Source: Calditrichia bacterium
GTDB lineage: Bacteria; Calditrichota; Calditrichia; RBG-13-44-9; J075
Assembly: GCA_020635015.1 (NCBI GenBank)
Contig: JACKAP010000006.1
Coordinates: 76,998 to 140,997, forward strand
DNA: 64,000 nt
Direction: 5' to 3'
Shown: positions 28,374 to 61,877 of the stretch, piece after piece
Layout of the letters: each line of letters begins with the position of its first letter
Position numbering within the stretch: position 1 is the first letter of the stretch
Notes under the pieces: generated by a model
Database searches by the model: none
What the model saw: the letters and a program-made list of their open reading frames with translations, nothing else
What the model was told of the DNA's origin: nothing
Translations under genes and position numbers: made by a program

Positions 28374-29270
28374 ATGCCATGCCATTTAAAAGATCGTGAT
28401 AAAATTATCAGCCGCTACCTGTTGCATGAGCTTAGCGAAGCAGAAGCGATGGAGTTCCAGGCGCACTTTTTCGAATGTGAGGAGTGTTTTCAAGAAATTA
28501 CTTTCAAGCGGAAAGCGTTGCGCTTGTTTCATGACCGCGGTGAAGAAATACTGGAATCCATCGAAACGGAGCCGGAGCCAGAGTTGGATCGAGCGACGCG
28601 TGGATTCTTTGCGCGCTACCGGCCGCATTTCGCTACAGCCGCAGCAGTGTTGATCGTGATGGCGTTGGTCATCCAGTTTACCCCATTGCTGGAAAAACCG
28701 GCTGACCAACAATGGCAGCGGGATATGAAGGTGCCTTATGAATATCGTCCGGGCGACAGTTTCCGCTCTGCCGGTACGCCTAGCGCAAAAAGTACGGCCG
28801 ATTCCCTGGCGGGTCAATTGCAGCGGGGGATAAACCGTTCGATGGGGGCCTATAATCAACCGAATTATGCGCTGATGCTCCAGAATATGGCGCAGTTGGA
28901 GGCGGCCGCAGCGCACTTGCGCGGGCAGCTATCTGCCCAGGATACCGCTGCCGCCATGATCCTGCGCGATTATGAATTCTATTACGGGGTCAGCAGGCTG
29001 GCCCGGGCGCGCACCCAAATAACCGACCTGGATCCGAAATACCGGGAACAGTTGCTCCAGGAAGCGGTCACGAACATCTCCCTGGCCTTAGATCTGGCCG
29101 TGGTTTATGGAAAAACCGATACCGATAAAGAACATTATTTCCTGGGGCTGGCGTACGGCTTTTCCGGTCAATTTTCCCGGGCCGTGGAGGCGCTGGAGAA
29201 GGTTACAGACGTTTCCAACCCGCAGTTTGACAGCCTCGCATCATTCCTCAAATTATGGAAAAACCGTTGA
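28374..29270 (+). CDS. zinc-finger (HxxxCxxC) anti-sigma factor with one TM and an extracytoplasmic helical domain
   Basis: FQAHFFECEECFQE ZAS motif. TM segment FATAAAVLIVMALVIQF. Lies directly downstream of the ECF sigma gene. Confidence 0.7.
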   Translation: MPCHLKDRDKIISRYLLHELSEAEAMEFQAHFFECEECFQEITFKRKALRLFHDRGEEILESIETEPEPELDRATRGFFARYRPHFATAAAVLIVMALVIQFTPLLEKPADQQWQRDMKVPYEYRPGDSFRSAGTPSAKSTADSLAGQLQRGINRSMGAYNQPNYALMLQNMAQLEAAAAHLRGQLSAQDTAAAMILRDYEFYYGVSRLARARTQITDLDPKYREQLLQEAVTNISLALDLAVVYGKTDTDKEHYFLGLAYGFSGQFSRAVEALEKVTDVSNPQFDSLASFLKLWKNR

Positions 29271-29495
29271 AGCCTCGCCAACCGATCTTTCCTGGCCGGC
29301 GAGGCCGGTGAATTCGCTCCAGATAGTTGATGCGGTCTCGGGCCGCCGCAACGACTGCAACCGATGAGATTGATCCTCCGCCGTAATCCAGCGCCAAGTC
29401 GACTTAAATCCATCCCTGGATTTGAAAGGCAATATTCGTATATTTTCCGAAGTCAACAACATCTCAACTGCCGGATAGATTACTTCGGGGGCTTT

Positions 29496-32400
29496 GTGAA
29501 AACGAACCTTTTCGAAATTAAGAGAGTGCTTTATCCGTTGATGCTGGTCGCTGGAATAAGCACATTGTTTGCTCAGGAACCCGGGCAGTATGAGCCCGAC
29601 CCTGCTGATCTGTCCCGCCTTTATACCTTCATGGAAACCATCGCCCGGGATTCGGTCGAAGTGCAGATCCGCGCTTACCGCCAATTTGTCACCGATCATC
29701 CGGAGCAGGAGCGGGCCTGCTGGCATTTGCTGGATTTTATGGTGATGGGCGGCCAACTGGAGGAGGCCCGGGATTTCTTTCAGGAGCAGGCGCTCGTTCC
29801 GGCAGGACGGCGCAACAGCCTCTGGATGCTGGCCCGGATCTACGCCCTGGAGGGCAATGCCGCTGCCGCCTTGCAAACCTACCGGGAAGTCTTTCAAAAC
29901 GGAGCGGCCTCCTTTGTGCTGCTGGATGATTTTGCCCTGTTTATCGTCCAAAACAAACTCGACCTGGAAAGTGAAATCGCGCAGTTGTCGATATCATCTG
30001 CCCAGCAAGCGATGATCCGAGTGGAAGTGTTGCGCCGGCGCGGTGAGGTCGAGAGGGTCCTGACCGTGCTTCAGGAAACGCTCCCCGACTATCAAACCAA
30101 CAAGTATTTGCTCCATCTCGCCGCCTACTGTCATCTCAACTCCGGAGACGAGGCCAGCGCGCTGCGTCTTCTGGAAAAAGGTCTTGGGATTGCCCGCGCA
30201 GAGAATGACCGGTTTATGACCGCCTATTACCTGACCATGATGGCGAATGTTGCCGGGGGCAATCGCGGAAAGGCCTATTGGGAAGAGGCCCGCAAGATTT
30301 CCGAAGGTCTTGCCAACCTGCGCCTGTCTATCAATGTCTATGTTGCCAGTTCCTTCGCGCTGGAGGATAAACAAGCTGCTCTGGGCTATATGGAACGGGC
30401 GATTGAAATTGCTACCGCTATCCGAAGCACACCGGAGATCGTATCGGCCTGGCTGTTGAAGGCCCAGCTGGAATCAGATCTGGAAAATTATAACGAGGCC
30501 CTGGATGCGTTTGTGCGGACGGAACAATATCTTGCTCAAGATGGCAATGAGGTTCACCGCTACGATTTTTACCTGGCCCGGGGAAGGTTCTTTCATAAAC
30601 TGCAACTAAACCAATGGGCCCGGAAGGATTACGAAACGGCCTATGAGTGGGCCCGGCAGAATGGCATGCTTTCCTACAACTATCTCGCACTCTCGCGTCT
30701 GGCCGATATCACCCTGAAAGAAAAAGAATATGAACGTGCCATTGTCCTGTACCGGGATTTCTTGAACCTGCACGCATCGAAGGTGCGTGTGTCCAACCGG
30801 GTTTATTGGCGCTATAAATTGGCGGAAGCATACCAGGCACAACATAAATATGCCGAAGCCCAGCAGCAGTTCGCCCGGGTTTACCAAGCGGCAGATCAAA
30901 TTCCGTTTCCGGTGTATAAAGAGCGGATGAAAGCGTATGCCCTGATACAGCAGGTCGCTATTCTGGCGGATCAGGAGGATCTGAAAGGCGCAAGCCGCCT
31001 GCTTAACAACGATGATCTCCGCCAGGTGTCGAAAGACCAGCAGGATGTCAAGATTGCTTATTTGATGATGCAGGGGCGGTTGTATCAACAAAAAGAGGAG
31101 ACAGACAGCGCGATCGTATGCCTGGAGGAGGCATCGAGAATTATCGAGGCGCAGCGCGGGCAACTGAAAGCGGAGGACCTGCGGGTAGGGTTTTTCAGTG
31201 ATAAAAGCAAGGTATATGATGAGCTGGTCAGTTGTTACTGGCAGCGCTATCGGCATGAATCCCAGCCGGAGGATCTGGAGCAAATTTACACTGCGCTGGA
31301 AATGCGCCGGGCACGGGTACTGCGTGATCTCAAATTTTCCGGGAATAAAAATCTCCGGAGGCAATCCAAAGATCCCTTGTATCAAAAATATCATGCGGCC
31401 TGTAATAGACTTCAAGCGCTTCAGCGCAGGATCCGGTTGAACCCCGGGCTTTATAGTGACTTGCAGCTCCAGTTAAAAACCGCCCGCCAGCAGGTAATCA
31501 ATACCCGGCTTCATTTGCTGAATCAATACGGATCGGCGGCTGTAGAGCAGCAGAAACCGCGACTGGATGAACTGGTCAGCGCCATGCAGTTACGGCAGAT
31601 GAGTCTGCTGTTTTACTGTATCGCCGAAAACGAGGCGTTTGTGCTGGTGGTGAACCGGGGGGAGCCCCGGGTGATCGCTCTGGATGCAAAGCTGGCGACC
31701 ATCGATTCCAAGGTGGATTCCCTGCTCCGGCCGCTGCACGAAATGCCGCCGGGTGGAATGGTAGGAATCCCATTCCGTGCGAAACTGGCCAACGAGTTAT
31801 ATCAGATCCTGATCGCGCCGGTTAAAGCGCAGGTCGACCTGGAGGAACAGGTGATGATCATCCCCGACCTGGCACTGGCCGGGCTGCCCTTTGATATACT
31901 GCTGAGCCAGATGCCCTCCCGGGAAGTTTATACCCCGGCCGATCCGGATACCGATTACCGCGATTCCTTTCTGCTGCATCAGCATGCAATCCTCTATGCG
32001 CCCAGTTCCTGGGTGGTACGCTCCGCTTCCAGCGCCGCCGTTGATTCCAGCGCCATACTGCTGCTGGCCAATCCCTTCTCGAATGATTTGTCACGCCCAT
32101 CGGAAAATGCGCTGCCGGTGAACCGGCAGCTTGAATATTTTGAACCCCTGATTTATGCCGATTACGAAGCGCAGATGATCAAAAGCCGTTGCGAGCAGGT
32201 GGAGGTCTTCCAGCACCAGCAGGCCACGCTCAAGGTGATTGATTCCCTCGGCAGCCGGTATGGGGTGCATCATTATTCGACGCACAGCTTTATCGATAAC
32301 GAGTTTGGGGCGTTTTCCGGCCTGTTTTTTGCCCTGAGTGATGATTCAACCGACGATGGCCTGCTGACGGTTTATAAGATTGCCGATCTGGAACTGAATT

Positions 32401-32855
32401 GTGACCTGGTATGTCTGAGCGCCTGCGAGAGCGGGGCGGGAAAGTTGGTGCGGGGTGAAGGGGTGATGGGAATGCCCCGGCAGTTCCTGGCCGCGGGCGC
32501 CCGCCGGGTGCTGATGAGCCAGTGGCTGGTCTCCGACCGCTTTAGCTCGCTGTTGATGCCGCTGTTTTACGAAGGAGCTATTGGGGAGCGTCAGCCCAAA
32601 GCGGTGGCGCTGCAACAGGCGAAGGTCGGCCTGCTGAGCCAGGTATCCGAAGAGCAATTGCGCTATGCCCATCCGTTTTTCTGGGCCGGTTTTACCCTCT
32701 ACGGCGAGCCGGAGATTGCGCTCGGCCCGCGCTTTCCGCTCTTTTCCGGAAACTGGTGGTTTGTCCTGCTGCTGGGCGCTATTGCCGGTGGGTATTTTGT
32801 CGCCGTCTGGCGCCGAATGAACGGCACCCCCCATTCTCGCGACCGGCGCACCTAG
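29496..32855 (+). CDS. TPR-repeat CHAT-domain (caspase-like) protease, N-terminal signal and C-terminal TM anchor
   Basis: Long TPR-like helical repeats. CHAT catalytic region HYSTHSF...LVCLSACESGAGK. C-terminal WWFVLLLGAIAGGYFVAVW. GTG 29496 precedes the signal-like LYPLMLVAGISTLFAQ; the ORF opens at 29364. Confidence 0.85.
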   Translation: MKTNLFEIKRVLYPLMLVAGISTLFAQEPGQYEPDPADLSRLYTFMETIARDSVEVQIRAYRQFVTDHPEQERACWHLLDFMVMGGQLEEARDFFQEQALVPAGRRNSLWMLARIYALEGNAAAALQTYREVFQNGAASFVLLDDFALFIVQNKLDLESEIAQLSISSAQQAMIRVEVLRRRGEVERVLTVLQETLPDYQTNKYLLHLAAYCHLNSGDEASALRLLEKGLGIARAENDRFMTAYYLTMMANVAGGNRGKAYWEEARKISEGLANLRLSINVYVASSFALEDKQAALGYMERAIEIATAIRSTPEIVSAWLLKAQLESDLENYNEALDAFVRTEQYLAQDGNEVHRYDFYLARGRFFHKLQLNQWARKDYETAYEWARQNGMLSYNYLALSRLADITLKEKEYERAIVLYRDFLNLHASKVRVSNRVYWRYKLAEAYQAQHKYAEAQQQFARVYQAADQIPFPVYKERMKAYALIQQVAILADQEDLKGASRLLNNDDLRQVSKDQQDVKIAYLMMQGRLYQQKEETDSAIVCLEEASRIIEAQRGQLKAEDLRVGFFSDKSKVYDELVSCYWQRYRHESQPEDLEQIYTALEMRRARVLRDLKFSGNKNLRRQSKDPLYQKYHAACNRLQALQRRIRLNPGLYSDLQLQLKTARQQVINTRLHLLNQYGSAAVEQQKPRLDELVSAMQLRQMSLLFYCIAENEAFVLVVNRGEPRVIALDAKLATIDSKVDSLLRPLHEMPPGGMVGIPFRAKLANELYQILIAPVKAQVDLEEQVMIIPDLALAGLPFDILLSQMPSREVYTPADPDTDYRDSFLLHQHAILYAPSSWVVRSASSAAVDSSAILLLANPFSNDLSRPSENALPVNRQLEYFEPLIYADYEAQMIKSRCEQVEVFQHQQATLKVIDSLGSRYGVHHYSTHSFIDNEFGAFSGLFFALSDDSTDDGLLTVYKIADLELNCDLVCLSACESGAGKLVRGEGVMGMPRQFLAAGARRVLMSQWLVSDRFSSLLMPLFYEGAIGERQPKAVALQQAKVGLLSQVSEEQLRYAHPFFWAGFTLYGEPEIALGPRFPLFSGNWWFVLLLGAIAGGYFVAVWRRMNGTPHSRDRRT

Positions 32856-36234: not shown

Positions 36235-36472
36235 GTCCACGGATTACACGGATGAGACAGATGTTATGCACTCACGGCTGAAAACATGATTTATGCTGTC
36301 ATTGCGAGGCGTTTTTTCCGAAGCAATCTCCCGCAAGGTGCAACCATCTGCAGTTAAATTGTAAGCGATCCGCATGAGATTGCCGCGCCGCACGCTACGC
36401 GGCTCGCAATGACAGCACCCGATGACGACCTGAGTTTCATTTAATCCGTGAAAATCCGTGTAATCCGTGGAC
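36235..36472. repeat. 238-bp nested inverted-repeat element
   Basis: Perfect 19-bp outer arms gtccacggattacacggat / atccgtgtaatccgtggac. Perfect 14-bp inner arms gctgtcattgcgag / ctcgcaatgacagc. 8-bp innermost pair gcaatctc / gagattgc. Confidence 0.85.
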
Positions 36473-36526: not shown

Positions 36527-37903
36527 TCAGCCCTTCGCGCTTCGCCCTTTGCCATCTTTTTCCAGCCAGGGCGGCAGCGCTTCCAACTGCTGCACGTATT
36601 CGGTGTTTTCCGCCTGGCGGATGACGGCAATGCTTTTATCCTCACCGATCATCACCACATTGGGACGGAGGTGGATGAACTGCATCCATTGGGTGTTGTT
36701 GTAGGCCCCGACCGGAGAGATCACCACCTGGTCGCCTTTCTCCAGGTAGGGCATCTGGATGGTGTTGCAGATCTCATCGATCTGCATGCACAGCGGTCCG
36801 TAGATGTGATGAGCCTCCTGATTCAACTGGGCTTTATTCTCCGCCGGCAGGATGGTATGGTCGTACCAAAAGGAGGTGAACAGCAGATTGACCCCGGCGT
36901 CCAACACCAGCATGCGCATGCCGCTGTTCATGCGCTTGGTGGCGACCACCTGGGCGATCAGGAAGGCCGACTCATCCACCAGCCCCCGCCCGGTCTCCAG
37001 GAAGAGGGTGGGCAACTGCGCTGCCGGGAAGGCGTTGAGCAGCTCCGCGGTGATCGCCTCGGCATACTGGTCGAAGGAGGGGATGGTCTGGTAGGCCGCC
37101 GGGTAGATCGACGCCTTGAGCTTGTTGTGCGAGGCGAAGCCGCCTCCGATATCGATATAGCGGATCTTGATGCTCTCTGCCTGCTGGATCTGCTGAACAA
37201 AGCCGATCAGCTTGCGCACCTGTTCGCGGTAAACCTCGGCGTTGAGCACAAAGGTGCCGATATGGGAATGGATCCCCACCAGGCGCAGCCACTTGCTGGC
37301 GGCGATCCTCCGTGCCGCCTCGAAGGCCTGCCCGCTCTCCATGTTGAGGCCAAATCGATCCCACGACTGCAAAGTAGAGAGGTTCATATTGACCCGCATG
37401 CCGATCTCGACTTCCCGGCCGAGGTCCTCGGCAATCTGTTCGATCTCGTAAATTTCATCGAAGCTGTCGATGTTGATCATCGCTCCATCCTGAACCGCGA
37501 TTTGCAGTCCGCGAGGCGACTTGTACGGTCCGTTGAAGATGATCCGGTTGCCGGGATTGCCCATCTTGCGGGCCAGTTCATATTCCCATTCCGAGACCAC
37601 CTCCGCCCAGGCGCCGAGCTGGTGATAGCTCCGGCATACCGCCTGCAGATAGTTGGTCTTGTAGCTCCAGGCGAAATGTACTTTGGGATATCGTTTAGAG
37701 AAAGCCCGGTAGGCATTCTGGAAGATCTCCTTCAGCCGCGGGTAGGAATAGACAAAGAGCGGGGAGCCGTAGGCGGCGGTCAACTCGCTGACCGGGATGC
37801 CTTCGATATTGTCCTGAAAGCCGCTGGTCTGCGGTGTGCCGAATTTGCTGGTAATGCCCATTTGCCGCCGCGATATCGCCGGTTTTTGATAGGTCTTTTT
37901 CAT
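36527..37903 (-). CDS. PLP-dependent decarboxylase, Orn/DAP/Arg decarboxylase family (fold type III)
   Basis: PLP-lysine context HFAWSYKTNY. IDIGGGFAS, FLETGRGLV and GPLCMQIDE motifs. 458 aa. Confidence 0.85.
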   Translation of the reverse strand: MKKTYQKPAISRRQMGITSKFGTPQTSGFQDNIEGIPVSELTAAYGSPLFVYSYPRLKEIFQNAYRAFSKRYPKVHFAWSYKTNYLQAVCRSYHQLGAWAEVVSEWEYELARKMGNPGNRIIFNGPYKSPRGLQIAVQDGAMINIDSFDEIYEIEQIAEDLGREVEIGMRVNMNLSTLQSWDRFGLNMESGQAFEAARRIAASKWLRLVGIHSHIGTFVLNAEVYREQVRKLIGFVQQIQQAESIKIRYIDIGGGFASHNKLKASIYPAAYQTIPSFDQYAEAITAELLNAFPAAQLPTLFLETGRGLVDESAFLIAQVVATKRMNSGMRMLVLDAGVNLLFTSFWYDHTILPAENKAQLNQEAHHIYGPLCMQIDEICNTIQMPYLEKGDQVVISPVGAYNNTQWMQFIHLRPNVVMIGEDKSIAVIRQAENTEYVQQLEALPPWLEKDGKGRSAKG

Positions 37904-38994
37904 GATGTCGGTCCTTCATCGGTTGAATGTTGCACAGGATTCGTCTCCGGATAATGGATCTCACCCCGGGAGAGCAGGCTGTCCAGCTGGCTGATTTCGC
38001 CAATCAGATCGATGGTGTAATGGGTGAAGAGTTTGCCCACCTGGTAATCGTTGACCGGTTCCAATTTCCGCCCCCGGGCCAGATCAACGTAATGGGCGGG
38101 CAGGTTGATCTCTGCCGCCACTCCGAGGTAGATCCAGGCGGGAAAGCGCGGGTTGATCTCCAGGATATAGAGTTTCTGGTCGCGCCGGGCCAGCAGGGTC
38201 TCCATCTCCAGCGCGCCCCGCCAGCGAGTGGCGCTAATGAAGCGGCGGGTGAGGTCGAGTAGCTGCTCGTTGCGGATACTCACCCCCGCCCAGCCCTTGC
38301 CCTTGTCGGTGAGCAGGATCTTCTTCATGCACAGGGCGGACACAATGCCGCCGTCGCCCCCGCCCAGCGCCGCTGCATTGAATTCCTCGCCCTGGATATA
38401 TTCCTGCACCAGCAGCGGGTAGCCCCACTTGTTGGCCAGCAGGCGGGCGTAAGAGAGCGCCTGAGGCTGGTCGTGGCAAATGTAAGCGTCGTAATAGATC
38501 CCTTTGACCAGCAGCGGGAAGCCGACCTCCCGCAGCGCTGCCTCCAGATCGGCCAGATGGTGCACCGTCACAGTGCGTGGTACCGCAAAATCAAATTTAC
38601 GGCCCAGTTCCGCCAGGTTGGCTTTGGAGCGGGCCTCGATCTGCGCAGTGGTGGGGATGAACATCCGGGTCCCGCTCTCCCGCAATTCAGCTTCCAGCCC
38701 GGCAAAGTGGGCGATCTCCGAATCCAGGGTGGGGATGATGATGTCGATGGGCGTTCTCTGCCGGATCTCATCCAGGCGCTGCTGCAGCGCCTCCCGCCCT
38801 TCCCGGGGGTAGGGCAGCAGATAGCCGGCACGGAACAGCTCGCGGTCGAACAGCCCGGGATCGATGGCGTCATAGCCGAGGGCGATCAGGCGATAATCCT
38901 GCCCGCCCTGGGCCATCAGACTGCGCGCCACCGCCACACCCGGACCGGGACTCTCCACGGCGTTGACCCCGGTAATGGCTATGGTCAGACTCAT
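37900..38994 (-). CDS. ATP-grasp domain ligase
   Basis: FPLLVKG, PLLVQEYIQGEEF and LYILEINPRFPAW motifs. 4-nt overlaps with both neighbouring genes. Confidence 0.8.
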   Translation of the reverse strand: MSLTIAITGVNAVESPGPGVAVARSLMAQGGQDYRLIALGYDAIDPGLFDRELFRAGYLLPYPREGREALQQRLDEIRQRTPIDIIIPTLDSEIAHFAGLEAELRESGTRMFIPTTAQIEARSKANLAELGRKFDFAVPRTVTVHHLADLEAALREVGFPLLVKGIYYDAYICHDQPQALSYARLLANKWGYPLLVQEYIQGEEFNAAALGGGDGGIVSALCMKKILLTDKGKGWAGVSIRNEQLLDLTRRFISATRWRGALEMETLLARRDQKLYILEINPRFPAWIYLGVAAEINLPAHYVDLARGRKLEPVNDYQVGKLFTHYTIDLIGEISQLDSLLSRGEIHYPETNPVQHSTDEGPTS

Positions 38995-39269
38995 ATGCTG
39001 TTCTCCTGTGTGTCAAAACTGACCAGGCCGAGGTTGATCAGCATTGGGATGAATTCGCGGATATCCTTGTCGAGTACCCGTTCGTCCACTTCGTAAACTT
39101 CCAGCAGGCGGGTTTTGATCGCCTCGGTATCGGTGATGCCTTCTTTGAGGCACTGGATGATGTCTCGGGCAACCTCATTGGTGCTGAGGATTTCCCCGGT
39201 GCCGGGATCGAATACGAACCCGGTATCGCTGATGATGAATTGCTGTAATCTTTCCACATTGTAGCGCAT
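38991..39269 (-). CDS. PqqD family-like small protein (peptide chaperone / RRE-like)
   Basis: 92 aa. FVFDPGTGEILSTNEVARDIIQCLKEGITDTEAIKTRLLEVYEVD...DIREFIPMLINLGLV has the PqqD-family pattern. Confidence 0.65.
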   Translation of the reverse strand: MRYNVERLQQFIISDTGFVFDPGTGEILSTNEVARDIIQCLKEGITDTEAIKTRLLEVYEVDERVLDKDIREFIPMLINLGLVSFDTQENSI

Positions 39270-39287
39270 GGCGAATTCTCCTGAAGA

Positions 39288-39719
39288 TTAGGGGGATACC
39301 AGGTAAGCCCAGATATAGGCGGTCATGCCGTCGAGCTTATAGCCGAGTTTATTGCATACCGCGTCGTCTTCGGCACAGTCTTTTTTTTCCAGCTTGCGCA
39401 GCCAAACCGCGGCCTCGAAGGTGCCGTTGAGGTATTCCGGATCGACCACGATCTCCTTCACCGTCACCCCCTGTTTGATCGAAAAAGAGAGATGCTTGCC
39501 CTCTTCCAGGGTATTGGTCACATTGGGCGGGTAAAGCGAGACCCCCAGCCACATGTCCTTGCCGCTGACGTGGGCAGTGAGGGTTAGTTTGAGGGTGTTG
39601 CCGCCGTTTTTGGTGATCTCGTAGGAGAACCCGATCTGGTCGGTCTGGGCGGCCGCCCCATTTCCAAAGGCGCTGATTAACGCCAGCAGGATGATAAAAA
39701 TTAATGTGTTACGCTTCAT
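39288..39719 (-). CDS. small secreted protein, unknown function
   Basis: 143 aa. Signal peptide MKRNTLIFIILLALISAFGNGAAAQ. Two Cys near the C-terminus. Operon position supports that it is coding. Confidence 0.6.
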   Translation of the reverse strand: MKRNTLIFIILLALISAFGNGAAAQTDQIGFSYEITKNGGNTLKLTLTAHVSGKDMWLGVSLYPPNVTNTLEEGKHLSFSIKQGVTVKEIVVDPEYLNGTFEAAVWLRKLEKKDCAEDDAVCNKLGYKLDGMTAYIWAYLVSP

Positions 39720-39731
39720 AGTGATGACTCC

Positions 39732-40604
39732 TTAGAATTTATAGAACAAACCAAATGTATAGTACACAGCACTGAACTGAAATCCCTGGTCGTCATAGCG
39801 CTCATATTGGACATCCGCATAAGGCTTGAGGTGCTTGCCGAGCTGGTAGTAGGCGGTGAGCCCCAGGTTGGTGGTCAGCATCACGTCGGTGGTGTAGAGC
39901 ACCAGCGTCGAGGGGTTATAAGAAAGTACCTGTTCCCCGAAAATTCCGTAAGCAGTAAGGGTGAGTTTGCGGGGCACGGGGTACCAGGTTAGCTCCGGAT
40001 GCACGCTCCAGCCCCATTTGATATTCTGCACCGGCTGTTCATAAAACGAAAAATGCCCGGAAGCCTGCGCCCAGACATAATAGTTGAACAGGGCCATGCC
40101 CCAGGTGGCGGAGACTTCGGCTTTATCGGCCAGGTCGTTAGGAAAATAGTGCAGATTAAGATCCGCATAATAGCGCCCCGCCGGAGAAAACCAGGAAAGG
40201 GAGAGGTAGCCGGGAAAGGTCTGATCGACCGCCGGAAAAGGCGCCCACAGCGCGCTGCCCTCCAGGGCCAGGGTAAAGCTGCCGCGATGGCGAGTATAGA
40301 AGGTGCGGGCCAGGCTGACCCGCAGGTGGTCGCTGCGGGCCGGCTCGCCGTCGGTTTTGTCGACCGTGATGTCGGTATGGCGCCAGCCCAAGGCCAGCCA
40401 CCAGGTCTTGGCTCGATTGTTATAATAGATGTCGCCCCTTCCGGAGCGAAATACGTCGACCAGGCTGTTTTCGTAGATTCCGTAGACGCCTTTCGCCGCG
40501 ACCGTGAGCGAGGACTGGGCAGATGCCTTGCCGCTCAGGAACAGCGCCAGGCAGATCAGTTGTAAAACCGTAAATTGCAGTAAGCGGGTCGATAAGCGTT
40601 TCAA
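39732..40604 (-). CDS. predicted outer-membrane beta-barrel protein
   Basis: Signal peptide ending ASAQ. Alternating aromatic/polar strands. C-terminal ...YYTFGLFYKF, the terminal-Phe OMP signature. Confidence 0.6.
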   Translation of the reverse strand: MKRLSTRLLQFTVLQLICLALFLSGKASAQSSLTVAAKGVYGIYENSLVDVFRSGRGDIYYNNRAKTWWLALGWRHTDITVDKTDGEPARSDHLRVSLARTFYTRHRGSFTLALEGSALWAPFPAVDQTFPGYLSLSWFSPAGRYYADLNLHYFPNDLADKAEVSATWGMALFNYYVWAQASGHFSFYEQPVQNIKWGWSVHPELTWYPVPRKLTLTAYGIFGEQVLSYNPSTLVLYTTDVMLTTNLGLTAYYQLGKHLKPYADVQYERYDDQGFQFSAVYYTFGLFYKF

Positions 40605-40611
40605 ACCGTAT

Positions 40612-42765
40612 TCACTCCCCGGGTGTCTGTTCGTAATACTCTATTTTATCTAACTTTAATTCGACGCCATTCTCCTGGAGATAATTGAATCCTTCCCCTT
40701 TGCGGAACACCAGTTGGCGGGTGCCAGCCTTGCGCTTGAACGTAAAATGCCATCTGATAAATCCGCCTCGGATCTGCTGGGCCTGCTTGAGCAGAATGGT
40801 TTCGTCGGGCAGTTTTTCCAGGGAATTGTCGATCTCCAGGAAGCAGCGCAGGCCGAAAATGGTAAACAGGTCCAGGAAGTGCACCAGGTAACGGGGCAGG
40901 GTGTAATCCAGGGAGGTCTGGCTGGTCCAATGAAGTTTGCCCGGCGCTTCCGGAAACACCACATCGGTGAGGGTCTGGGCCAGCAGAAACAGGGCGCTGT
41001 TGCGCTTTCCCTGATACTTTTTCAGCGAGAGCACTCCTTCAGACAGGTCGAAATAGAGCCGGTCGCCGTCCTGGTTTTCCAGGCAGAGATTGTTGTAAAA
41101 ATCATTGTGCAGATGCCAGGATTCCTCAGAGCTCAACTTGCCGCTGTTCAGGATCAACTGCCATTTTTTGTAAATTTCATCGAAGAAATATTTGCTGTAG
41201 TCGGCATCATAGCGCAGGTTCTCCACCCGGTCATCTTTGTTGAGGATGCCCTTGGGAAGCAGGCGGTCGGCGGCGTTATCCTGTTTGATCAGCAGATTGG
41301 AAAATTCAAAATAAAGTGCCGGGGCGCCGATGTAATCCTGAGCCTGAAACTGCAGGTGGATATGCGGGTAGGGAGAACGGCCGGAATTGCCGCAGTGCCC
41401 GATTTTATCACCTTTACTGACGGTATCCCCTGCTTTGACGCTGATCGAATCCTTCTGCAGGTGAGCGATGCAGCTGTAGAAATAGGGGGCATGCTCGATG
41501 ATCACGCAGTTGCCCCAGTTGTCGCGGGGATTGGCCTGCCCGGGGCGGTTGTCATAGATGTCATTTTTGACCCGAACGACCGTGCCGTCGGCCGGGGCGA
41601 GCACCAGGGCGTTGTAGCAATAGTAATCGCTCAGCTTCTCCCCGCTGCCGCTGTAAATGCTGCCGCCGGTGTCGCGGATCATGAAGTCGATCCCATAAGC
41701 CCATTCGTCTTTATGGGTATATTCGCCTTTGAATGCCTGGCTCACCACCCAGTCGCTGTAAAAGGGCAGGGAGATCGCCACCCCGTAGCGCCGCCACATC
41801 TTCAGGTTTTCCCGGTAGCTGCTCAGGTTCTCCTCAGGTGATAGCGGGTGGGAACTCAATTCCAGCCCCAGCGAGGGATGGAGGCGCATCTTTAAGGCAA
41901 ATACCACCAGTAGCACCGAGAGGTTGAAAGACAGCGCAAGAGAAGAGAGATAAAACGGCATGGCGATCTCCAGCGCGATCAGGTTCATGTAAACGATAAA
42001 GATGCCGAAGATCGCCAGCAGGAGGCTGGATAGATTCGGGATCAGGAACACCCCGCCCAGCGCCAGGGCGGTGAGCATATAGTTGAAGCCAAGATATTGG
42101 CTGTGAATGAACGCTTCGCTCACCCCGAAAAATTCGTGGATGTAATACCCGCCCAGCCAGCCGATCCCGATCAGCAACAGCGAGAGGCGGGAATAAATCA
42201 GCAGCCCGGCGGCGATCAGGATGCCTGAGATCGGGTTGATGGTGAAAAAGATCGCCCCGAGGTTCTTGAAAAACAGGTTGAGGCTAAGGGGCAAGGCATG
42301 CAGGGAGACGTCAAACACCTGCCAGCGCACCTCCGAAGGGGTCAGGTAGCCGCTGCCAAAGCTGGCGATGATGGCGGTGTAGATGATCAGATTGAAGGGG
42401 AGGCTCATGTAGGGCAGCCCGTAGGCGCTCAAGAAGGTTTTGATCCACATGGTGAAGACGGTCATCAGGATCACCGCAATGATGACCAGGATGACCAGGT
42501 GGAGGGAGACATCGTAATAAAGGCTCAGGCCTAACGCCACCAGAATACCGTTGAAGCCCCATAAGCCTTGCCGTATCTCCTGGCGGCTGAATCCCAGCAG
42601 GTAGGCGACCAGGTTGGCAATCAGCGCCCCTCCCAGGCCGAAGATGCCGTGGGAGGGAATGACCAGGGTTGCCAGCAGGATAATCAATCCCAATGCCTGA
42701 TGTTGTGAAAAGAATATGAGCGAATAGCTTTTTAAGGTACTCTCTGTCCAGAATTTCGCATTCAT
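40612..42765 (-). CDS. fusion protein: urea-transporter (UT)-like polytopic membrane domain + M23/LytM domain + unknown C-terminal domain
   Basis: The N-terminal ~310 aa carry UT-family motifs (IFFSQHQALGL, QGLWGFNGILVALGL). The M23 region has GNSGRSPYPHIHLQF. The last ~220 aa have no motif I recognise. Confidence 0.8.
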   Translation of the reverse strand: MNAKFWTESTLKSYSLIFFSQHQALGLIILLATLVIPSHGIFGLGGALIANLVAYLLGFSRQEIRQGLWGFNGILVALGLSLYYDVSLHLVILVIIAVILMTVFTMWIKTFLSAYGLPYMSLPFNLIIYTAIIASFGSGYLTPSEVRWQVFDVSLHALPLSLNLFFKNLGAIFFTINPISGILIAAGLLIYSRLSLLLIGIGWLGGYYIHEFFGVSEAFIHSQYLGFNYMLTALALGGVFLIPNLSSLLLAIFGIFIVYMNLIALEIAMPFYLSSLALSFNLSVLLVVFALKMRLHPSLGLELSSHPLSPEENLSSYRENLKMWRRYGVAISLPFYSDWVVSQAFKGEYTHKDEWAYGIDFMIRDTGGSIYSGSGEKLSDYYCYNALVLAPADGTVVRVKNDIYDNRPGQANPRDNWGNCVIIEHAPYFYSCIAHLQKDSISVKAGDTVSKGDKIGHCGNSGRSPYPHIHLQFQAQDYIGAPALYFEFSNLLIKQDNAADRLLPKGILNKDDRVENLRYDADYSKYFFDEIYKKWQLILNSGKLSSEESWHLHNDFYNNLCLENQDGDRLYFDLSEGVLSLKKYQGKRNSALFLLAQTLTDVVFPEAPGKLHWTSQTSLDYTLPRYLVHFLDLFTIFGLRCFLEIDNSLEKLPDETILLKQAQQIRGGFIRWHFTFKRKAGTRQLVFRKGEGFNYLQENGVELKLDKIEYYEQTPGE

Positions 42766-42830
42766 CTCCGGCTCTCAGCTTGTGCGATCGAATAGTGAAT
42801 TGCAAACTGGCATTAATCCAACTTTATTAT

Positions 42831-42890
42831 GATGCTGGATACTGGATGCTGGATACAAGATTGGGTCGAGCATCCAGCGTCTTCGGATGT
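42831..42890. repeat. (GGATGCT/GGATACT) hairpin upstream of the six-gene operon
   Basis: gatgctggatactggatgctggatacaagattgggtcgagcatccagcgtc. Confidence 0.75.
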
Positions 42891-42965
42891 ATAGATCGTT
42901 ACCATTCGCATTGTAATATACCGGATTTAATCGCGGTACTCCATCATTGATACATTTTGTTCGCG

Positions 42966-43369
42966 GTTGATGGGTTAATGGGGAAAAGGATAAAGGATAA
43001 AGGATAAAGGATAAAGGATAAAGGTTGAAGATACTGGATACTGGATACTGGATAAAATAAAAATGCTTGTTCAGGTGTGAAAATCGGGTTCATTTAAGCA
43101 TCCAGCATCCAGCATCCAGCATCCAGCATCCAGCATCCAGCATCCAGCATCCAGCATCCAGCATCCAGCATCCAACATCCAACATCCAGCATCCAACATA
43201 TACTCATCAGACAAAGCCATCCGCAAAAACTTGCAAATTTCCTATTGACCTGACCCGATCCCTTCAACATATTTCCGCCGCAATGAAAAATCAACCCATC
43301 AACCCATCAACCCATCAACCCATCAACCCATCAACCGATCAACCCATTAACCCATCAACCCATCAACCC
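42966..43369. repeat. composite simple-repeat element (left copy): (GGATAAA)n-(GGATACT)n-unique core-(GCATCCA)n-spacer-(CAACCCAT)n
   Basis: Read directly. It ends exactly at the ATG (43370) of the S9 peptidase gene. Inverted partner at 45296-45527. Confidence 0.9.
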
Positions 43370-45295
43370 ATGAAAACATTACCCTATGGCACCTGGCCAT
43401 CACCGATTACCGCCGATCTCATCGCTGCCGCCGGGCGGCGGCTGGGCGATATCGCCGTCGATGGAGATTCGGTTTACTGGATCGAAAGTCGCCCGGAGCA
43501 GGAGGGGCGCAATACCATCATGATGTGGAACCCCGGCGGGGAGTTTCGGGAAGTTACCCCGCCGCCTTTTAATGTGCGCTCCCGGGCCCATGAATACGGC
43601 GGCGGCGCTATGGCGGTGTATGGCGGCCGGGTGTTCTTTGTGAACGATGCAGATCGCCAGATCTATCACATTCCTCCCGGCGGATCCCCGCAGGCGCTGA
43701 CCAGCGAATCCGATACCGCCTATGCCGATATGATCCTCGATCCGGCGCGCCAGCGGCTGATCCTGGTGCAGGAGCATTATTTTGATGACAGCCGCCCGCC
43801 CCGCGACATGCTGGCCGTGCTTTCCCTGCGCGGCCGCCCGGGATATTGTGAGCCGCTGGTGAGCGGGAACGATTTCTATGCCAGTCCCGCCCTGAGCCGC
43901 GACGGCCGGCAGCTTTGCTGGCTGAGCTGGGACCATCCGGCAATGCCCTGGAACGGTACTGAATTATGGGTGGCGGAGGTAGGGGATGACGGTCAACTGC
44001 GCCGCCGGCGCCGGATTGCCGGAGGCGCGCAGGAGTCGGTGTTCCAGCCGCAATGGGGTACAGACGGCACCCTGTATTTTGCTTCCGACCGCAGGGAGGG
44101 CTGGTGGAACCTCCATGCCTGGGATGGGCACACCATCCGGCCGGTGCTGGAGATGGCTGCGGAGTTCGCCTTGCCCCAGTGGGTTTTCGGAATGTCGACC
44201 TATTGTATTTTGAATGAGCGTTGTATCGCCGCTGCGTACACCCGGGAGGGGCGCTGGGAGATGGGGCTGATCGATCCGCAGCGCGGTGATCTGGAGGCCC
44301 TGGCGCTGCCCTTTAGCTATATTACCCAGGTTCGCGGCGCCGGGGAGCGGATCGCTTTTGTCGGCGCTGCGCCGGATGCAGCGGAGGCGGTTTATACCCT
44401 GGAACTGCCGTCGCAGCACCTGCAGATGTTGCGGAAATCCAGCGATCTGGAGGTGGATGCCGGCTATATTTCCACCCCGCAGGCAGTGAGTTTTGAAAGT
44501 GATGGCGAGGAGGTGCACGGCTTTTTCTATCCTCCCAGCAATCGCGATTTCAGCGCTCCGGAGGACGAAAAACCTCCGCTGATCGTATTCATTCACGGCG
44601 GTCCCACGGCGGCGGCGAACAGCGGATTGGATCTTCGCAAACAATTTTGGACCAGCCGCGGCTTTGCGGTGCTCGACGTCAACTACCGGGGCAGCACCGG
44701 CTATGGGCGGGCGTACCGGGAAAGCCTCAACGGCCGTTGGGGGGTGGCCGATGTGCAGGATTGCGTCAACGGCGCCCGGCGTCTGGCGGCGCAGCAGCAG
44801 GCGGATCCGGAAAGGCTGCTGATCCGCGGCGGCAGCGCCGGGGGATTCACCGCCCTGGCGGCGCTGACTTTTCACGATTGTTTCCGGGCCGGGGCGAGCT
44901 ATTATGGCATCAGCGATCTGGAAGCGCTGGAGCAGGAGACCCACAAGTTTGAATCGCGCTACAATCATCAATTGATCGCCCCCTATCCCGCCGGTAAGCC
45001 AGTCTACCGCGAACGCTCGCCGCTGCACCATGCCGGGGATCTGAACCGCCCGGTGATCTTCCTGCAGGGCCTGGAGGATCGGGTGGTGCCCCCCGGTCAG
45101 GCGGAAAGAATGGCCCACGCCCTGCGTAAACGCGGCGTGCCGGTGGCTTATCTTACCTTTGAGGGCGAAGGGCACGGCTTCCGCAAGCCGGAAACCATCC
45201 GCCGCGCCCTGGAAGCGGAGTTGTTCTTTTATGGAAGGGTGCTGGGATTCGAGCCCGGGGAGAAGCTTGATCCGGTGCAGATAGATAATTTGTGA
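43370..45295 (+). CDS. S9 family serine peptidase (prolyl oligopeptidase / acylaminoacyl-peptidase type)
   Basis: Beta-propeller N-terminal half. Catalytic nucleophile motif IRGGSAGGFTALAAL and C-terminal ...EGEGHGF. The ORF part upstream of 43370 is translated repeat DNA. Confidence 0.88.
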   Translation: MKTLPYGTWPSPITADLIAAAGRRLGDIAVDGDSVYWIESRPEQEGRNTIMMWNPGGEFREVTPPPFNVRSRAHEYGGGAMAVYGGRVFFVNDADRQIYHIPPGGSPQALTSESDTAYADMILDPARQRLILVQEHYFDDSRPPRDMLAVLSLRGRPGYCEPLVSGNDFYASPALSRDGRQLCWLSWDHPAMPWNGTELWVAEVGDDGQLRRRRRIAGGAQESVFQPQWGTDGTLYFASDRREGWWNLHAWDGHTIRPVLEMAAEFALPQWVFGMSTYCILNERCIAAAYTREGRWEMGLIDPQRGDLEALALPFSYITQVRGAGERIAFVGAAPDAAEAVYTLELPSQHLQMLRKSSDLEVDAGYISTPQAVSFESDGEEVHGFFYPPSNRDFSAPEDEKPPLIVFIHGGPTAAANSGLDLRKQFWTSRGFAVLDVNYRGSTGYGRAYRESLNGRWGVADVQDCVNGARRLAAQQQADPERLLIRGGSAGGFTALAALTFHDCFRAGASYYGISDLEALEQETHKFESRYNHQLIAPYPAGKPVYRERSPLHHAGDLNRPVIFLQGLEDRVVPPGQAERMAHALRKRGVPVAYLTFEGEGHGFRKPETIRRALEAELFFYGRVLGFEPGEKLDPVQIDNL

Positions 45296-45527
45296 GTGGA
45301 TGGGTGGATGGGTTGATGAGTGGATGGGTGGATGGGTTAATGGGTTGAGATGCTGGATGCTGGATGCTGGATGCTGGATGCTGGATGCTGAAATGAACCC
45401 GATTTTCGCACCCGAACAAGCATTTTTATTTTACCCAGTATCCAGCACCTTCAACCTTTATCCTTTATCCTTTATCCTTTACCCTTTATCCTTTATCCTT
45501 TATCCTTTTCCCCATTCACCCATCAAC
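45296..45527. repeat. composite simple-repeat element (right, inverted copy)
   Basis: Starts 1 nt after the S9 peptidase stop. It is the reverse complement of the left element, including the unique core (4 substitutions in ~56 nt by my count). Confidence 0.9.
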
Positions 45528-49478: not shown

Positions 49479-49482
49479 GGGG

Positions 49483-49604
49483 GACGAAGGGTGAAGGATG
49501 AAGGATGAAGGATGAAGGATGAAGGATGAAGGATGAAGGATGAAGGATGAAGGATAAAGGATAAAGGATGAAGGATAAAGGATGAAGGATGAAGGATGAA
49601 GGAT
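49483..49604. repeat. (GGATGAA)n / (GGATAAA)n heptamer array filling the whole intergenic spacer
   Basis: About 17 heptamer units lie between the MerR-family stop (49478) and the next start (49605). Confidence 0.9.
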
Positions 49605-55708: not shown

Positions 55709-57028
55709 GTGAAAACCGCCTGTATCATCGGCGCCGGCGCCTCCGGTATTACCGCCGCGAAAACCTTCCGGGAGCAGGGAATTGATTTTGACTGCTTTGA
55801 GAAAGGTTCCGGTATCGGCGGCAACTGGCGCTACGGAAACGACAACGGGATGTCTTCCGCCTACCGCTCCCTGCATATCATCTCCAGCAAGTGGAACATG
55901 CAGTATTCCGATTATCCCATGCCGGAAGATTTTCCCGACTACGGCCATCACAGCGATGTACTGCGTTATTTCGAGAATTATGTCGATCACTTTGGCATTC
56001 GCGAGACCATCCGCTTTCATTGCGAAGTGAAAGAGGTGACGCCGCACTCCCGGGATGGCTGGGAGGTGACCCTCGCAGGGGGCGAGCGCCGGAACTATCG
56101 TGCGGTGGTGGTGGCCAACGGCCATCACTGGAATCCCCGCTGGCCGGAATTTCCCGGAAGCTTTCACGGAGAAGCAATCCATTCTCATCATTATAAAACG
56201 CCCGAGGCCTTTGAAGACAAAAATGTGCTGATCGTCGGGATCGGAAATTCCGCCTGCGATATTGCGGTCGACCTCTCCCGCCTGGCCCGCACGGTGCATC
56301 TTTCTACCCGGCGCAGCGCCTATGTGCTTCCGAAATATGTGCTGGGAATTCCCAATGATCAATGGCTTCATCCGCTGTTCGATTATTTCCCGCTGGCCCT
56401 GCGTCGCACCGCCTTCCGGATATTGGCCTACATGACCGTTGGTAACCAGGAGCGCTACGGCCTGCCCCGGCCCCGCCACAAATTGTTGCAGGAGCATCCC
56501 ACTCTGAATCAGGAATTTTTGTCCTACGTGGGACACGGGCGGATCAAGATCAAACCGGATATCCGCGAACTGCAGGGGGAACGGGTGGGGTTCGTCGACG
56601 GCAGCAGTGAACCGTTCGATACGATCATTTATGCCACCGGCTATAACATCACCTTTCCGTTTCTGAAGCCGGAAGTGTTTACGGTGCAGGACAACCGGGT
56701 ACACCTTTACCGGCGGGTGATCGATCCGGAATTGCCCAACTTGTTCTTCCTGGGGCTGATCCAGCCCCTCGGGGCGATCATGCCCCTGGCGGAGTTGCAG
56801 GCCCGCTGGATCGCCGGGCTGCTGAACGGCGAGATGGCCCTGCCGGACGAAGGGCGGATGCGCCGCGATATCGAGGCCGATCGTTCCCTCCTGCGCCGCC
56901 GCTACACCGACTCCGCCCGCCATACCATCCAGGTGGATTTTTGGGATTATGTGCACCAACTGAAGCGGGAAATGCGGAAAGGGAAGAAGCTTGCTGATAG
57001 GAAAAGGAGGATGAAGGGTGAAGGATAA
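55709..57028 (+). CDS. flavin-containing monooxygenase
   Basis: FAD motif ACIIGAGASGITAAK, FMO motif FHGEAIHSHHYK and NADPH motif VLIVGIGNSACDIA. GTG start 2 nt after the RlpA-like stop. Confidence 0.85.
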   Translation: MKTACIIGAGASGITAAKTFREQGIDFDCFEKGSGIGGNWRYGNDNGMSSAYRSLHIISSKWNMQYSDYPMPEDFPDYGHHSDVLRYFENYVDHFGIRETIRFHCEVKEVTPHSRDGWEVTLAGGERRNYRAVVVANGHHWNPRWPEFPGSFHGEAIHSHHYKTPEAFEDKNVLIVGIGNSACDIAVDLSRLARTVHLSTRRSAYVLPKYVLGIPNDQWLHPLFDYFPLALRRTAFRILAYMTVGNQERYGLPRPRHKLLQEHPTLNQEFLSYVGHGRIKIKPDIRELQGERVGFVDGSSEPFDTIIYATGYNITFPFLKPEVFTVQDNRVHLYRRVIDPELPNLFFLGLIQPLGAIMPLAELQARWIAGLLNGEMALPDEGRMRRDIEADRSLLRRRYTDSARHTIQVDFWDYVHQLKREMRKGKKLADRKRRMKGEG

Positions 57029-57145
57029 AGGGCAAAGGATAAAGGGCAAAGGATAAAGGAATAACCTTGATTGACATTGGGACTGGATTTTGTTCTGTTT
57101 CAGCATCCAGCATCCAGCATCCAGTACAACCCATCAACCCATTTA
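57008..57145. repeat. composite simple-repeat element: (GGATAAAGG/GGATGAA)n-core-(GCATCCA)n-(CAACCCAT)n
   Basis: Same module order as the element upstream of the S9 peptidase gene. It overlaps the last codons and the stop of the FMO gene. Confidence 0.85.
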
Positions 57146-61790: not shown

Positions 61791-61877
61791 TGAAGGGAAA
61801 AGGATGAAGGATAAAGGATGAAGGATAAAGGGAAGAAGAATAGCCCCATTGTTCACGATGGGGAGGAGGAGTAGCCC

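Follow-up and report, generated by a model that had tools for sequence, protein, structure and literature searches.

A widespread gene cassette combining PqqD, ATP-grasp and decarboxylase proteins with a urea-channel-fold membrane protein

Which function could unite a urea-channel-like membrane protein, two proteins of the outer envelope and a trio of PqqD, ATP-grasp and decarboxylase proteins in a single operon? The question is raised by positions 36527-42765 of a stretch of 64,000 nucleotides (nt) from a Calditrichia bacterium (assembly GCA_020635015.1, contig JACKAP010000006.1), hereafter called the window, where a first-pass annotation made from the sequence alone could name no known pathway. 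The six genes form a real operon and represent the Calditrichota version of a widespread and self-contained gene cassette, whose conservation across phyla shows that it is not a chance arrangement. The reading that we prefer, with a probability of roughly 35%, is that an amino acid would be ligated to a carrier presented by the PqqD protein and decarboxylated there, and that the resulting amine would be released by a channel-tethered amidase and exported.

Operon structure and distribution of the cassette

The operon lies on the minus strand and comprises the following genes, preceded by an intergenic region.

42766-43066, no strand: upstream intergenic region, presumed promoter site, containing heptamer repeat arrays
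40612-42765, minus strand: gene of the UT-M23-LolA-like protein, 717 amino acids (aa), first gene of the operon
39732-40604, minus strand: gene of a barrel-type signal-peptide protein, 290 aa, TTG start
39288-39719, minus strand: gene of a signal-peptide protein, 143 aa
38991-39269, minus strand: gene of a PqqD-family protein, 92 aa
37900-38994, minus strand: gene of an ATP-grasp ligase, 364 aa
36527-37903, minus strand: gene of a pyridoxal 5'-phosphate (PLP) decarboxylase, 458 aa

All six co-oriented open reading frames (ORFs) reported by the first-pass annotation are present, and direct reading of the sequence confirmed both the spacing (7, 12 and 18 nt) and the pair of ATGA stop/start overlaps. 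With this geometry in place, its view that the genes are very likely co-transcribed holds. Shine-Dalgarno-like sequences (AGGAG/GGGGAG) precede the PqqD gene and the TTG-initiated gene of the 290-aa protein, and the GC content across the operon region is unremarkable. Terminator-like and promoter-like matches within the operon region did not exceed those in shuffled controls, and sigma-70-like promoters were not significantly enriched in the upstream intergenic region.

The architecture of the 717-aa protein, a UT domain followed by an M23 domain and about 240 further residues, recurs in more than 700 relatives of equal length and domain content from Calditrichota, Nitrospirota, Nitrospinota, Deltaproteobacteria, Ignavibacteria, Chlorobiota and Bacteroidota. 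When one genome per species was scanned, the cassette was detected in at least 566 species-level genomes. Among the matches listed, most are from Bacteroidota and Ignavibacteria and some from Chlorobiota, Fibrobacterota, Marinimicrobia and Bradymonadales, and homologue and context searches add carriers from Calditrichota, Nitrospirota, Nitrospinota and Deltaproteobacteria. The cassette is also found in hundreds of environmental contigs. Cultured carriers belong to Algoriphagus, Fontibacter and Polaribacter, and Ignavibacterium album and Melioribacter are represented by metagenome-assembled genomes.

Co-occurrence of the genes in related genomes had been set beforehand as a test of the operon, and it holds from two seeds. 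In 86 loci seeded with the UT-M23 protein, tblastn with the window proteins detected the decarboxylase in 84, the ATP-grasp protein in 79 and the PqqD protein in 72, and all misses except one (L071) are at contig ends. In metagenome loci seeded with the ATP-grasp protein and offering enough sequence, the partners were present without exception (PqqD 67/67, decarboxylase 56/56, UT-M23 35/35). The core cassette consists of PqqD, ATP-grasp, decarboxylase, UT-M23 and barrel proteins. Its commonest gene order is PqqD, ATP-grasp, decarboxylase, UT-M23; the UT-M23 gene comes first in the window and last in Nitrospirota, where it follows the barrel gene and a 139-aa gene. Because gene content is kept while order varies between phyla, selection appears to act on the gene set. 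Comparison of the PqqD, ATP-grasp and decarboxylase triplet with characterised clusters and curated families, which had been named as a possible source of refutation, gave no match. NCBIfam returned only matches below cut-off, with no curated family model for the system, and the literature searched in full text held nothing describing the cassette or these combinations.

Several genes accompany the cassette in particular lineages. An AraC-family regulator with an N-terminal MxCxxC-like motif is encoded immediately upstream of PqqD in L015 (6527-7108) and about 20 other Bacteroidota loci, and a gene for an extracytoplasmic function (ECF)-type sigma factor lies between the decarboxylase and UT-M23 genes in L086, L093, L132 and L143. 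Both may be regulators of the cassette. A metal link through the MxCxxC-like N-terminus of the AraC protein was considered and rejected, as Pfam does not support an HMA domain. In the Nitrospirota locus L001 (2741-5180), FeoB and FUR are encoded on the strand opposite to the cassette and just upstream of it, which hints at a possible, lineage-specific metal link. A Peptidase_S66 (LD-carboxypeptidase/MccF) gene follows the barrel gene in the Ignavibacteria loci L003 (13622-14563), L075 (13715-14656) and L083 (10703-11686), and it may be functionally linked to the cassette or merely a lineage-specific neighbour. Genes for IS200/RAYT-like transposases stand between decarboxylase and UT-M23 in L029 (8128-10001) and L056 (1643-2611); the cassette therefore tolerates interruption at this junction.

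The membrane protein and its envelope partners

The 717-aa protein is composed of three parts.

41881-42765, minus strand: UT membrane domain, residues 1-295 (Pfam UT; AlphaFold2 and Foldseek)
41335-41778, minus strand: M23/LytM metallopeptidase domain, residues about 330-477 (Pfam M23 and fold matches; predicted cytoplasmic)
40612-41334, minus strand: C-terminal 240-aa beta-rich LolA/LolB/lipovitellin-like open-barrel domain, residues 478-717 plus stop codon

Profile searches, which had been proposed as a check on the UT and PqqD assignments, supported both. The membrane half, claimed by the first-pass annotation for the urea transporter family, matches Pfam UT with an E-value of 3.4e-52 over model positions 2-291 of 292, and the M23/LytM domain that it also claimed matches Peptidase_M23 (Pfam E 4.5e-16). 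In an AlphaFold2 model of the whole protein, built from 81 sequences (predicted local distance difference test, pLDDT, 93.3; predicted TM-score, pTM, 0.85), the N-terminal 295 residues match the Desulfovibrio urea channel (3k3f/3me1) with Foldseek TM-scores of 0.85-0.89. The duplicated UT signature motifs, GFN and LP(x)FN / LPxxxLPFN, are conserved in the family. Of the two pore threonines, the one in the first half is replaced by Ser121 and the one in the second half by Ala. Against the NCBIfam Yut equivalog TIGR03441 the domain scores 109 bits, with a cut-off of 274.6.

The M23 domain matches the folds of ShyA, Csd1/2 and LytM. Residues H351, D360, H435, H468 and H470 are invariant in the 81 sequences and H425 is nearly so, and the HxH half of the site (H468, H470) aligns to characterised M23 enzymes including LytM and ShyA. 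These invariant His and Asp residues suggest that the M23 site may be intact. The C-terminal part of about 240 residues, previously unrecognised, appears to be a LolA/lipovitellin-like domain and is a putative lipid binder.

Known UT proteins have an N-in/C-in topology, with both termini in the cytoplasm (PMC9097623). The AlphaFold2 model places no transmembrane helix between the last UT helix and the M23 domain. Positive charges in the family follow the same orientation, with a Lys plus Arg count of 6.3 for the loops on the side of the N- and C-termini, another 7.4 for the post-membrane linker and 3.0 for the opposite side. In the sister cassettes described below, sirtuin and GNAT domains take the position equivalent to that of M23. 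Sirtuins require NAD and GNATs require acetyl-CoA, which puts the UT C-terminus in the cytoplasm. On these four grounds the M23 domain and everything C-terminal to it are most likely cytoplasmic, an unusual location for the M23 family.

These sister cassettes came from an exhaustive search with the ATP-grasp protein, which gave 3316 matches at E <= 1e-3 and 205 at E <= 1e-30; many of the relatives are tandem double ATP-grasps of about 710 aa.

L167:6366-13217: sister cassette, UT fused to SIR2
L171:7366-14217: sister cassette, UT fused to SIR2
L172 (GCA_009772835.1): sister cassette, UT fused to SIR2
L170:977-9344: sister cassette, UT fused to SIR2 and a GNAT acetyltransferase
L174:1251-7583: sister cassette, UT fused to SIR2

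In these cassettes a periplasmic TPR protein is encoded first, followed by PqqD, a double ATP-grasp, the decarboxylase and the UT-domain protein, and in the fusions the SIR2 or SIR2-GNAT part replaces the M23 and LolA-like module. The SIR2 domains have the canonical sirtuin motifs GAGISxxxGIPDY and TQNVDxLH, the catalytic LHG and two CxxC pairs forming a zinc ribbon. Such UT-sirtuin fusions seem not to have been described before. The enzyme trio keeps the UT domain as its membrane partner throughout, and the enzyme tethered to that domain is interchangeable between two unrelated catalysts, whose common activity is amide cleavage on an amine.

SIR2 domains are also common defence effectors, and their presence in sister cassettes raises the idea of an anti-phage or toxin-type system with SIR2 or M23 as the effector. 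We consider this highly improbable: the SIR2 motifs and zinc ribbon are those of canonical sirtuin deacylases, none of the six proteins had a significant PADLOC match, and the cassette consists mostly of biosynthetic enzymes among variable neighbours that are not defence islands.

The 290-aa and 143-aa proteins carry signal peptides ending in AXA-Q, as judged by inspection, and neither has a Pfam or NCBIfam match. An outer-membrane barrel had been claimed for the 290-aa protein, which ends in FGLFYKF, and homology to barrel-like proteins of other cassettes backs this claim. Using hhalign, the protein aligned over its full length to proteins of about 273 aa encoded after UT-M23 in Ignavibacteria (probability 94.7%, E 6e-8) and also to the C-terminal half of TPR-plus-barrel proteins of about 440 aa from Bacteroidota (probability 92.5%). 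The latter, signal-peptide proteins with an N-terminal TPR region and the end GGIxWxF, are encoded downstream of UT-M23 and followed by a TPR protein of about 207 aa, whereas in Ignavibacteria a TPR protein comes first and the protein of about 273 aa, ending in F, second. Among the 94 loci with enough flanking sequence, a barrel homologue is present in 90, the periplasmic TPR protein of about 207 aa lies near UT-M23 in 92, and the barrel together with either the TPR protein or the 143-aa protein occurs in 89. We infer that the 290-aa protein is an outer-membrane beta-barrel and the fifth conserved component of the cassette.

The 143-aa protein is beta-rich with two Cys residues and has only 8 relatives in 5.8 billion proteins searched, the named ones being Calditrichota-like. 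It shares 40% identity with the product of the 139-aa gene of the Nitrospirota cassette L001 and 50% with its counterpart in L087, and it occurs only in Calditrichota, Nitrospirota and a small number of metagenome contigs. It is a lineage-specific stand-in for the periplasmic TPR protein. The envelope-spanning module of the first-pass annotation keeps its barrel and envelope partners, but its M23 domain is most likely cytoplasmic and not periplasmic.

The enzyme trio and a possible reaction sequence

The decarboxylase matches Orn_Arg_deC_N (3e-35) and Orn_DAP_Arg_deC (1e-12) in Pfam. Its best PDB match is N-citrylornithine decarboxylase (7kh2, 3e-55), followed by diaminopimelate decarboxylase (DAPDC, 1e-44) and BtrK (1e-25). 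The fold-type-III assignment of the first-pass annotation stands, as do the PLP-Lys, GGGF and ETGRG motifs that it quoted; in alignment with FigC these fall on the PLP-Lys (K63), the glycine loop and the E287/R290 motif. The likeness to LysA that it also proposed does not, since the specificity residues are FigC-like. The scores against LysA TIGR01048 (223.6 bits, cut-off 297.9) and against NCBIfam FslC (225.7 bits, cut-off 500) are both below threshold. In DAPDC, an Arg of the specificity helix binds the distal carboxylate of the substrate and an acidic residue beside the catalytic Cys binds the distal amine (PMC7857480). The specificity helix of the cassette enzyme, LLFTSFWY, has Thr in place of the DAPDC Arg, and its catalytic loop reads C-M-Q as in FigC, compared with C-E-S/T in DAPDC. 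The proposed citrate ligands of FigC, H357 and R387, correspond to Ile and Gln. For FigC, SbnH, AcsE and BtrK alike, the amino acid to be decarboxylated is one whose side chain is already in a conjugate (PMC7857480). Judged by its residues, the cassette enzyme thus appears to be a FigC/FslC-type member of the alanine-racemase fold and not a LysA. Because the pocket has no residues for a charged distal group, it would suit a side-chain-conjugated amino acid, and the substrate is most likely an amino acid with a neutral, that is already conjugated, distal end. Across 80 orthologues covering all phyla, LLFTSFWY and GPLCM(Q/N)ID show almost no variation, implying that a single substrate may be conserved.

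A DAPDC-derived enzyme that has lost exactly the residues binding the free distal carboxylate and amine, as expected for an amide-linked end, could also serve in remodelling the envelope. In such a scheme, the membrane-tethered, cytoplasmic M23 and LolA-like domains would work on a lipid-anchored peptide (a lipid I/II stem or a lipopeptide) to which the ATP-grasp enzyme adds an amino acid; the decarboxylase would produce an amine from a diamino-acid terminus embedded in it, such as the D-centre of meso-diaminopimelate, with the TPR and barrel proteins as envelope partners. Every bacterial M23 enzyme characterised so far cleaves peptidoglycan peptides, the fold of the C-terminal domain appears to be that of a lipid carrier, and the S66 gene of the LD-carboxypeptidase family follows the cassette in the three Ignavibacteria loci. 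Remodelling of a lipid-linked precursor is nevertheless unlikely in our view: it leaves the PqqD protein, the UT channel and the exchange of M23 for a sirtuin unexplained, the cassette is accessory and patchy and universal in no phylum, and the S66 neighbour is lineage-specific.

The PqqD-family assignment of the 92-aa protein, made in the first-pass annotation, is supported by Pfam PqqD (E 1.2e-11, 45.2 bits with a gathering cut-off of 23.4). Matches to the curated lasso, PQQ (pyrroloquinoline quinone) and HPr-rel-A models are weak and all below cut-off. The protein has the standard fold of about 80 residues with no conserved tail, and across the family the C-termini vary in length and final residue. 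The ATP-grasp assignment also found support (Pfam ATPgrasp_Ter, E 1.8e-7), while the "CPS-like" PRK12767 models of NCBIfam score far below cut-off, CPS being carbamoyl phosphate synthetase. A profile from 18 orthologues was searched against the PDB and matched the CPS large chain (2e-13), the structural-genomics protein 2pn1 (1e-11), PurD (5e-7), the biotin-carboxylase domains of acetyl-CoA carboxylase, urea carboxylase and pyruvate carboxylase (about 1e-6), the D-Ala-D-Ala ligase Ddl (3e-3) and RimK (0.26); no LysX, graspetide or L-amino-acid ligase was found at E <= 1. By these profile matches, the enzyme appears closest to the CPS/PurD/biotin-carboxylase clade.

Among solved structures, the best relatives of the ATP-grasp enzyme are CPS, urea carboxylase and other bicarbonate-activating enzymes, and the tandem double ATP-grasps of the sister cassettes resemble the two halves of CPS. 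Together with the conserved UT fold and motifs, this could be taken to mean that the UT domain imports urea, ammonia or a small amide and that the CPS-like enzyme carboxylates or carbamoylates an acceptor. Such uptake gives no role to the PqqD protein, the decarboxylase, M23 or sirtuin, the LolA-like domain or the envelope proteins, the cassette has no urease or allophanate hydrolase gene, and the "CPS-like" labels are all far below family cut-offs, and we regard it as quite unlikely.

Two natural fusions join members of the trio.

L170:3550-4983: PqqD-ATP-grasp fusion (P0201)
L168:8001-10616: ATP-grasp-decarboxylase fusion (P0164)

They point to a physical and functional coupling of the PqqD, ATP-grasp and decarboxylase proteins. 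In L168, the gene after P0164 encodes a protein of 637 aa in which neither a Pfam match nor a UT domain was detected.

The occurrence of PqqD raised the question of a peptide synthesized on the ribosome and modified post-translationally (RiPP). The first-pass annotation had noted that no precursor ORF fits into the tiny intergenic gaps, and this now extends to about 150 loci, in or beside which no conserved small ORF was found. The gaps of 7-18 nt leave no room for a precursor upstream of PqqD in the window or, likewise, in Nitrospirota. Clustering of ORFs of 25-110 aa from the 900 nt upstream of PqqD in genome loci yielded only antisense and tRNA-overlap artefacts, and in several loci the 350 nt upstream of PqqD contain no ATG-initiated ORF at all. 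Where intra-cassette gaps are long, they hold IS200-like transposases, ECF sigma factors, an eIF-2B-like protein or type IX secretion system (T9SS)-type proteins, none of them common to the lineages. A 47-aa ORF near the UT-SIR2 cassettes was rejected as it looks spurious.

A RiPP-type pathway with its precursor encoded elsewhere would use PqqD as the RiPP recognition element (RRE), the ATP-grasp enzyme and decarboxylase for tailoring, M23 or the sirtuin as leader protease or for tailoring, and the envelope proteins for peptide export. The PqqD match well above the Pfam threshold fits this proposal, as do its N-terminal fusion to the ATP-grasp enzyme, resembling that of RREs in RiPP enzymes, the action of both M23 enzymes and sirtuins on peptides, and the existence of scaffold-peptide pathways with overlooked short precursors, such as fosfazinomycin. 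The proposal remains doubtful given the lack of a conserved small ORF in or beside the roughly 150 cassettes, a UT pore far too narrow for a peptide, and an ATP-grasp enzyme that is of neither the graspetide nor the RimK type; graspetide pathways in particular are not indicated, with no match to an MdnB/MdnC-type ligase and no precursor found.

The preferred reading, ligation of an amino acid to a carrier followed by decarboxylation, release and export, can be laid out as a series of steps. PqqD would dock the ATP-grasp enzyme to, or would itself present, a peptide-like carrier encoded outside the operon. The ATP-grasp enzyme would then form an amide between the amino acid and a carboxylate or amine on the carrier, and the decarboxylase would strip the alpha-carboxylate of the tethered amino acid to leave an amide-linked amine. 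At the cytoplasmic mouth of the UT channel, M23 (or the sirtuin of the sister cassettes) would hydrolyse the amide, allowing the small polar product to exit via the UT pore, after which the periplasmic protein and the outer-membrane barrel would handle it in the outer envelope. A hydrophobic portion of the substrate or of the membrane may be the ligand of the LolA-like domain.

A number of observations speak against this sequence of events, beginning with the fact that the analysis is computational throughout. No carrier peptide or protein was identified for the cassette. PqqD itself was rejected as a LysW-like carrier because its C-termini are not conserved, and membership in the LysW/LysX type is also contradicted by the match to the RimK type at only E 0.26. 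Instead of peptide or protein ligases, the solved structures nearest to the ATP-grasp enzyme are those of CPS, PurD and biotin carboxylases. In the M23 domain, the canonical HxxxD spacing is absent, with H351 standing nine residues before D360 instead of four, and the LolA-like domain points to a lipid ligand that the model explains only loosely. The UT pore is narrow (about 2-3 Å in known channels, for which the constriction residues have been described; PMC10541013) and one of its pore threonines is Ala, and therefore the solute may be an incoming substrate instead of an outgoing product. Finally, small polar molecules normally need no dedicated outer-membrane barrel with a periplasmic partner.

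A more far-reaching possibility, to which we give less credence than to the preferred reading itself, is that the cassette represents a new class of synthesis-coupled secretion machine. In such a machine, the UT fold would serve as a conduit, for exit or entry, for a small amine or amide built on a PqqD-presented carrier and set free only at the channel mouth, by an interchangeable tethered amidase (M23 in one clade, a sirtuin in another), and it would be linked through a periplasmic adaptor to a barrel of its own. If this is true, UT, cytoplasmic M23 and PqqD proteins gain roles outside urea transport, cell-wall hydrolysis and RiPP maturation.

Flanking sequences and comparison with known systems

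Two kinds of repeats occur around the operon, and the first-pass annotation took them as bounding it on both sides.

36235-36472, no strand: nested inverted repeat of about 238 bp, directly downstream of the operon and before the next gene
3207-3326, 5572-5622, 42985-43371, 45293-45508, 49482-49604, 57008-57060 and 61789-61831 of the window: tandem arrays of 7-/8-nt repeats

The downstream element is a genuine inverted repeat, with perfectly complementary outer arms of 19 nt that are 200 nt apart and inner arms of 18 nt that include GTCATTGCGAG. Its RNA fold has an energy of -117 kcal/mol (z = -5.3), it is present as a single copy within the window, and it has no Rfam match; the operon flanks as a whole gave nothing credible in Rfam. 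It is possibly a terminator or an insertion resembling a miniature inverted-repeat transposable element (MITE). The element overlaps the annotated GTG start of a Big_7 protein (423 aa) that probably begins at the ATG near 36214 instead. The upstream repeats, by comparison, proved to be non-specific: the tandem arrays AGCATCC, AAAGGAT and ATCAACCC recur at seven or more other intergenic sites of the window and, being a genome-wide feature, mark no specific operon boundary. The flanking repeats are no meaningful boundary of a mobile unit. Many intergenic regions of the window are filled with arrays of this kind (GGATGAA and others among them), in some cases as inverted sets flanking a gene. Spurious ORFs arise from them, for example the HPASSIQ-repeat N-terminus of the 742-aa ORF at 43067, an S9 peptidase with its real start probably near 43367. 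In the intergenic region at 12297-12567, two arrays of 18-22/40-nt repeats face each other, with TGTTTGCTCGCTTCGCTCGCGA and its reverse complement as their repeats. At 29364-32855, the window encodes a 1163-aa TPR-CHAT (caspase-like) protein, adjoined by a zf-HC2 anti-sigma-like protein at 28374-29270, both unrelated to the cassette. None of the window neighbours (Big_7, BNR, GFO oxidoreductase, CHAT-TPR, S9 and M16 peptidases) is conserved with the cassette.

Among known systems, the closest logic is that of BtrI/BtrJ/BtrK in butirosin biosynthesis, with the same trio of a small partner, an ATP-grasp enzyme and a decarboxylase of the alanine-racemase fold. BtrK, a detectable homologue (1e-25), accepts glutamate for decarboxylation only in the side-chain-tethered form (PMC7857480). 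The comparison with BtrJ/BtrK, already drawn in the first-pass annotation, is an apt one and stays an analogy because the cassette has no acyl carrier protein: the partner is PqqD/RRE and has no PP-binding match as a phosphopantetheinyl carrier would, and the decarboxylase is closer to FigC than to BtrK. Unlike the butirosin cluster, the cassette has no aminoglycoside genes and adds UT-M23, an outer-membrane barrel and a periplasmic protein. At the subfamily level, the decarboxylase is akin to FigC/FslC, SbnH and AcsE (C-M-Q loop and Thr/Tyr helix). However, no IucA/IucC synthetase of the pathways to nonribosomal peptide synthetase-independent siderophores (NIS) is encoded in or near the cassettes.

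Stand-alone or enzyme-fused PqqD proteins beside a modifying enzyme are also known from the RRE/PqqD pathways (PQQ, lasso peptides, mycofactocin), from peptide aminoacyl-tRNA ligases (PEARLs) and from fosfazinomycin, and as in scaffold-peptide pathways, a hydrolase could here release the product. The cassette differs from these in having no precursor gene, radical-SAM enzyme, lasso cyclase or protease, or PEARL enzyme. Its membrane domain shares with the bacterial and mammalian urea channels (dvUT, Yut and UT-B) both the fold, at a TM-score of up to 0.89, and the duplicated signature motifs. In contrast to these channels, it is fused to about 420 cytoplasmic residues, has one pore Thr replaced by Ala and is accompanied by no urease genes. 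The M23 domain shares the fold, the HxH and the surrounding motifs with ShyA, MepM, LytM and Csd, but it is predicted to be cytoplasmic and membrane-tethered instead of secreted, and the spacing of its first zinc motif is non-canonical. In the outer envelope, the TPR-plus-barrel protein and separate TPR protein of Bacteroidota recall the exopolysaccharide secretion modules AlgK/AlgE, PgaA and BcsC, and also Slam, with weak matches to TPR_Slam. In contrast to those secretion modules, the cassette has no glycosyltransferase or polymer synthase, its barrel, at about 260 residues, is much smaller and falls into no Pfam family, and the window has the unrelated 143-aa protein in place of the TPR protein.

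Each conserved part of the cassette would be doing something out of the ordinary for its family, namely an enzyme-fused urea channel, an M23 domain on the cytoplasmic side, a PqqD protein without precursor and a descendant of DAP decarboxylase with a neutral pocket. The exchange of M23 for a sirtuin and the gene fusions give testable constraints on the chemistry, and as several carriers are cultured, they are open to genetics and metabolomics. Such work is likely to lead to a new metabolite, and it may also reveal a new coupling of biosynthesis to export across a two-membrane envelope. Compared with the systems above, the cassette is apparently an arrangement without precedent of known folds, widespread, strongly conserved and previously undescribed.

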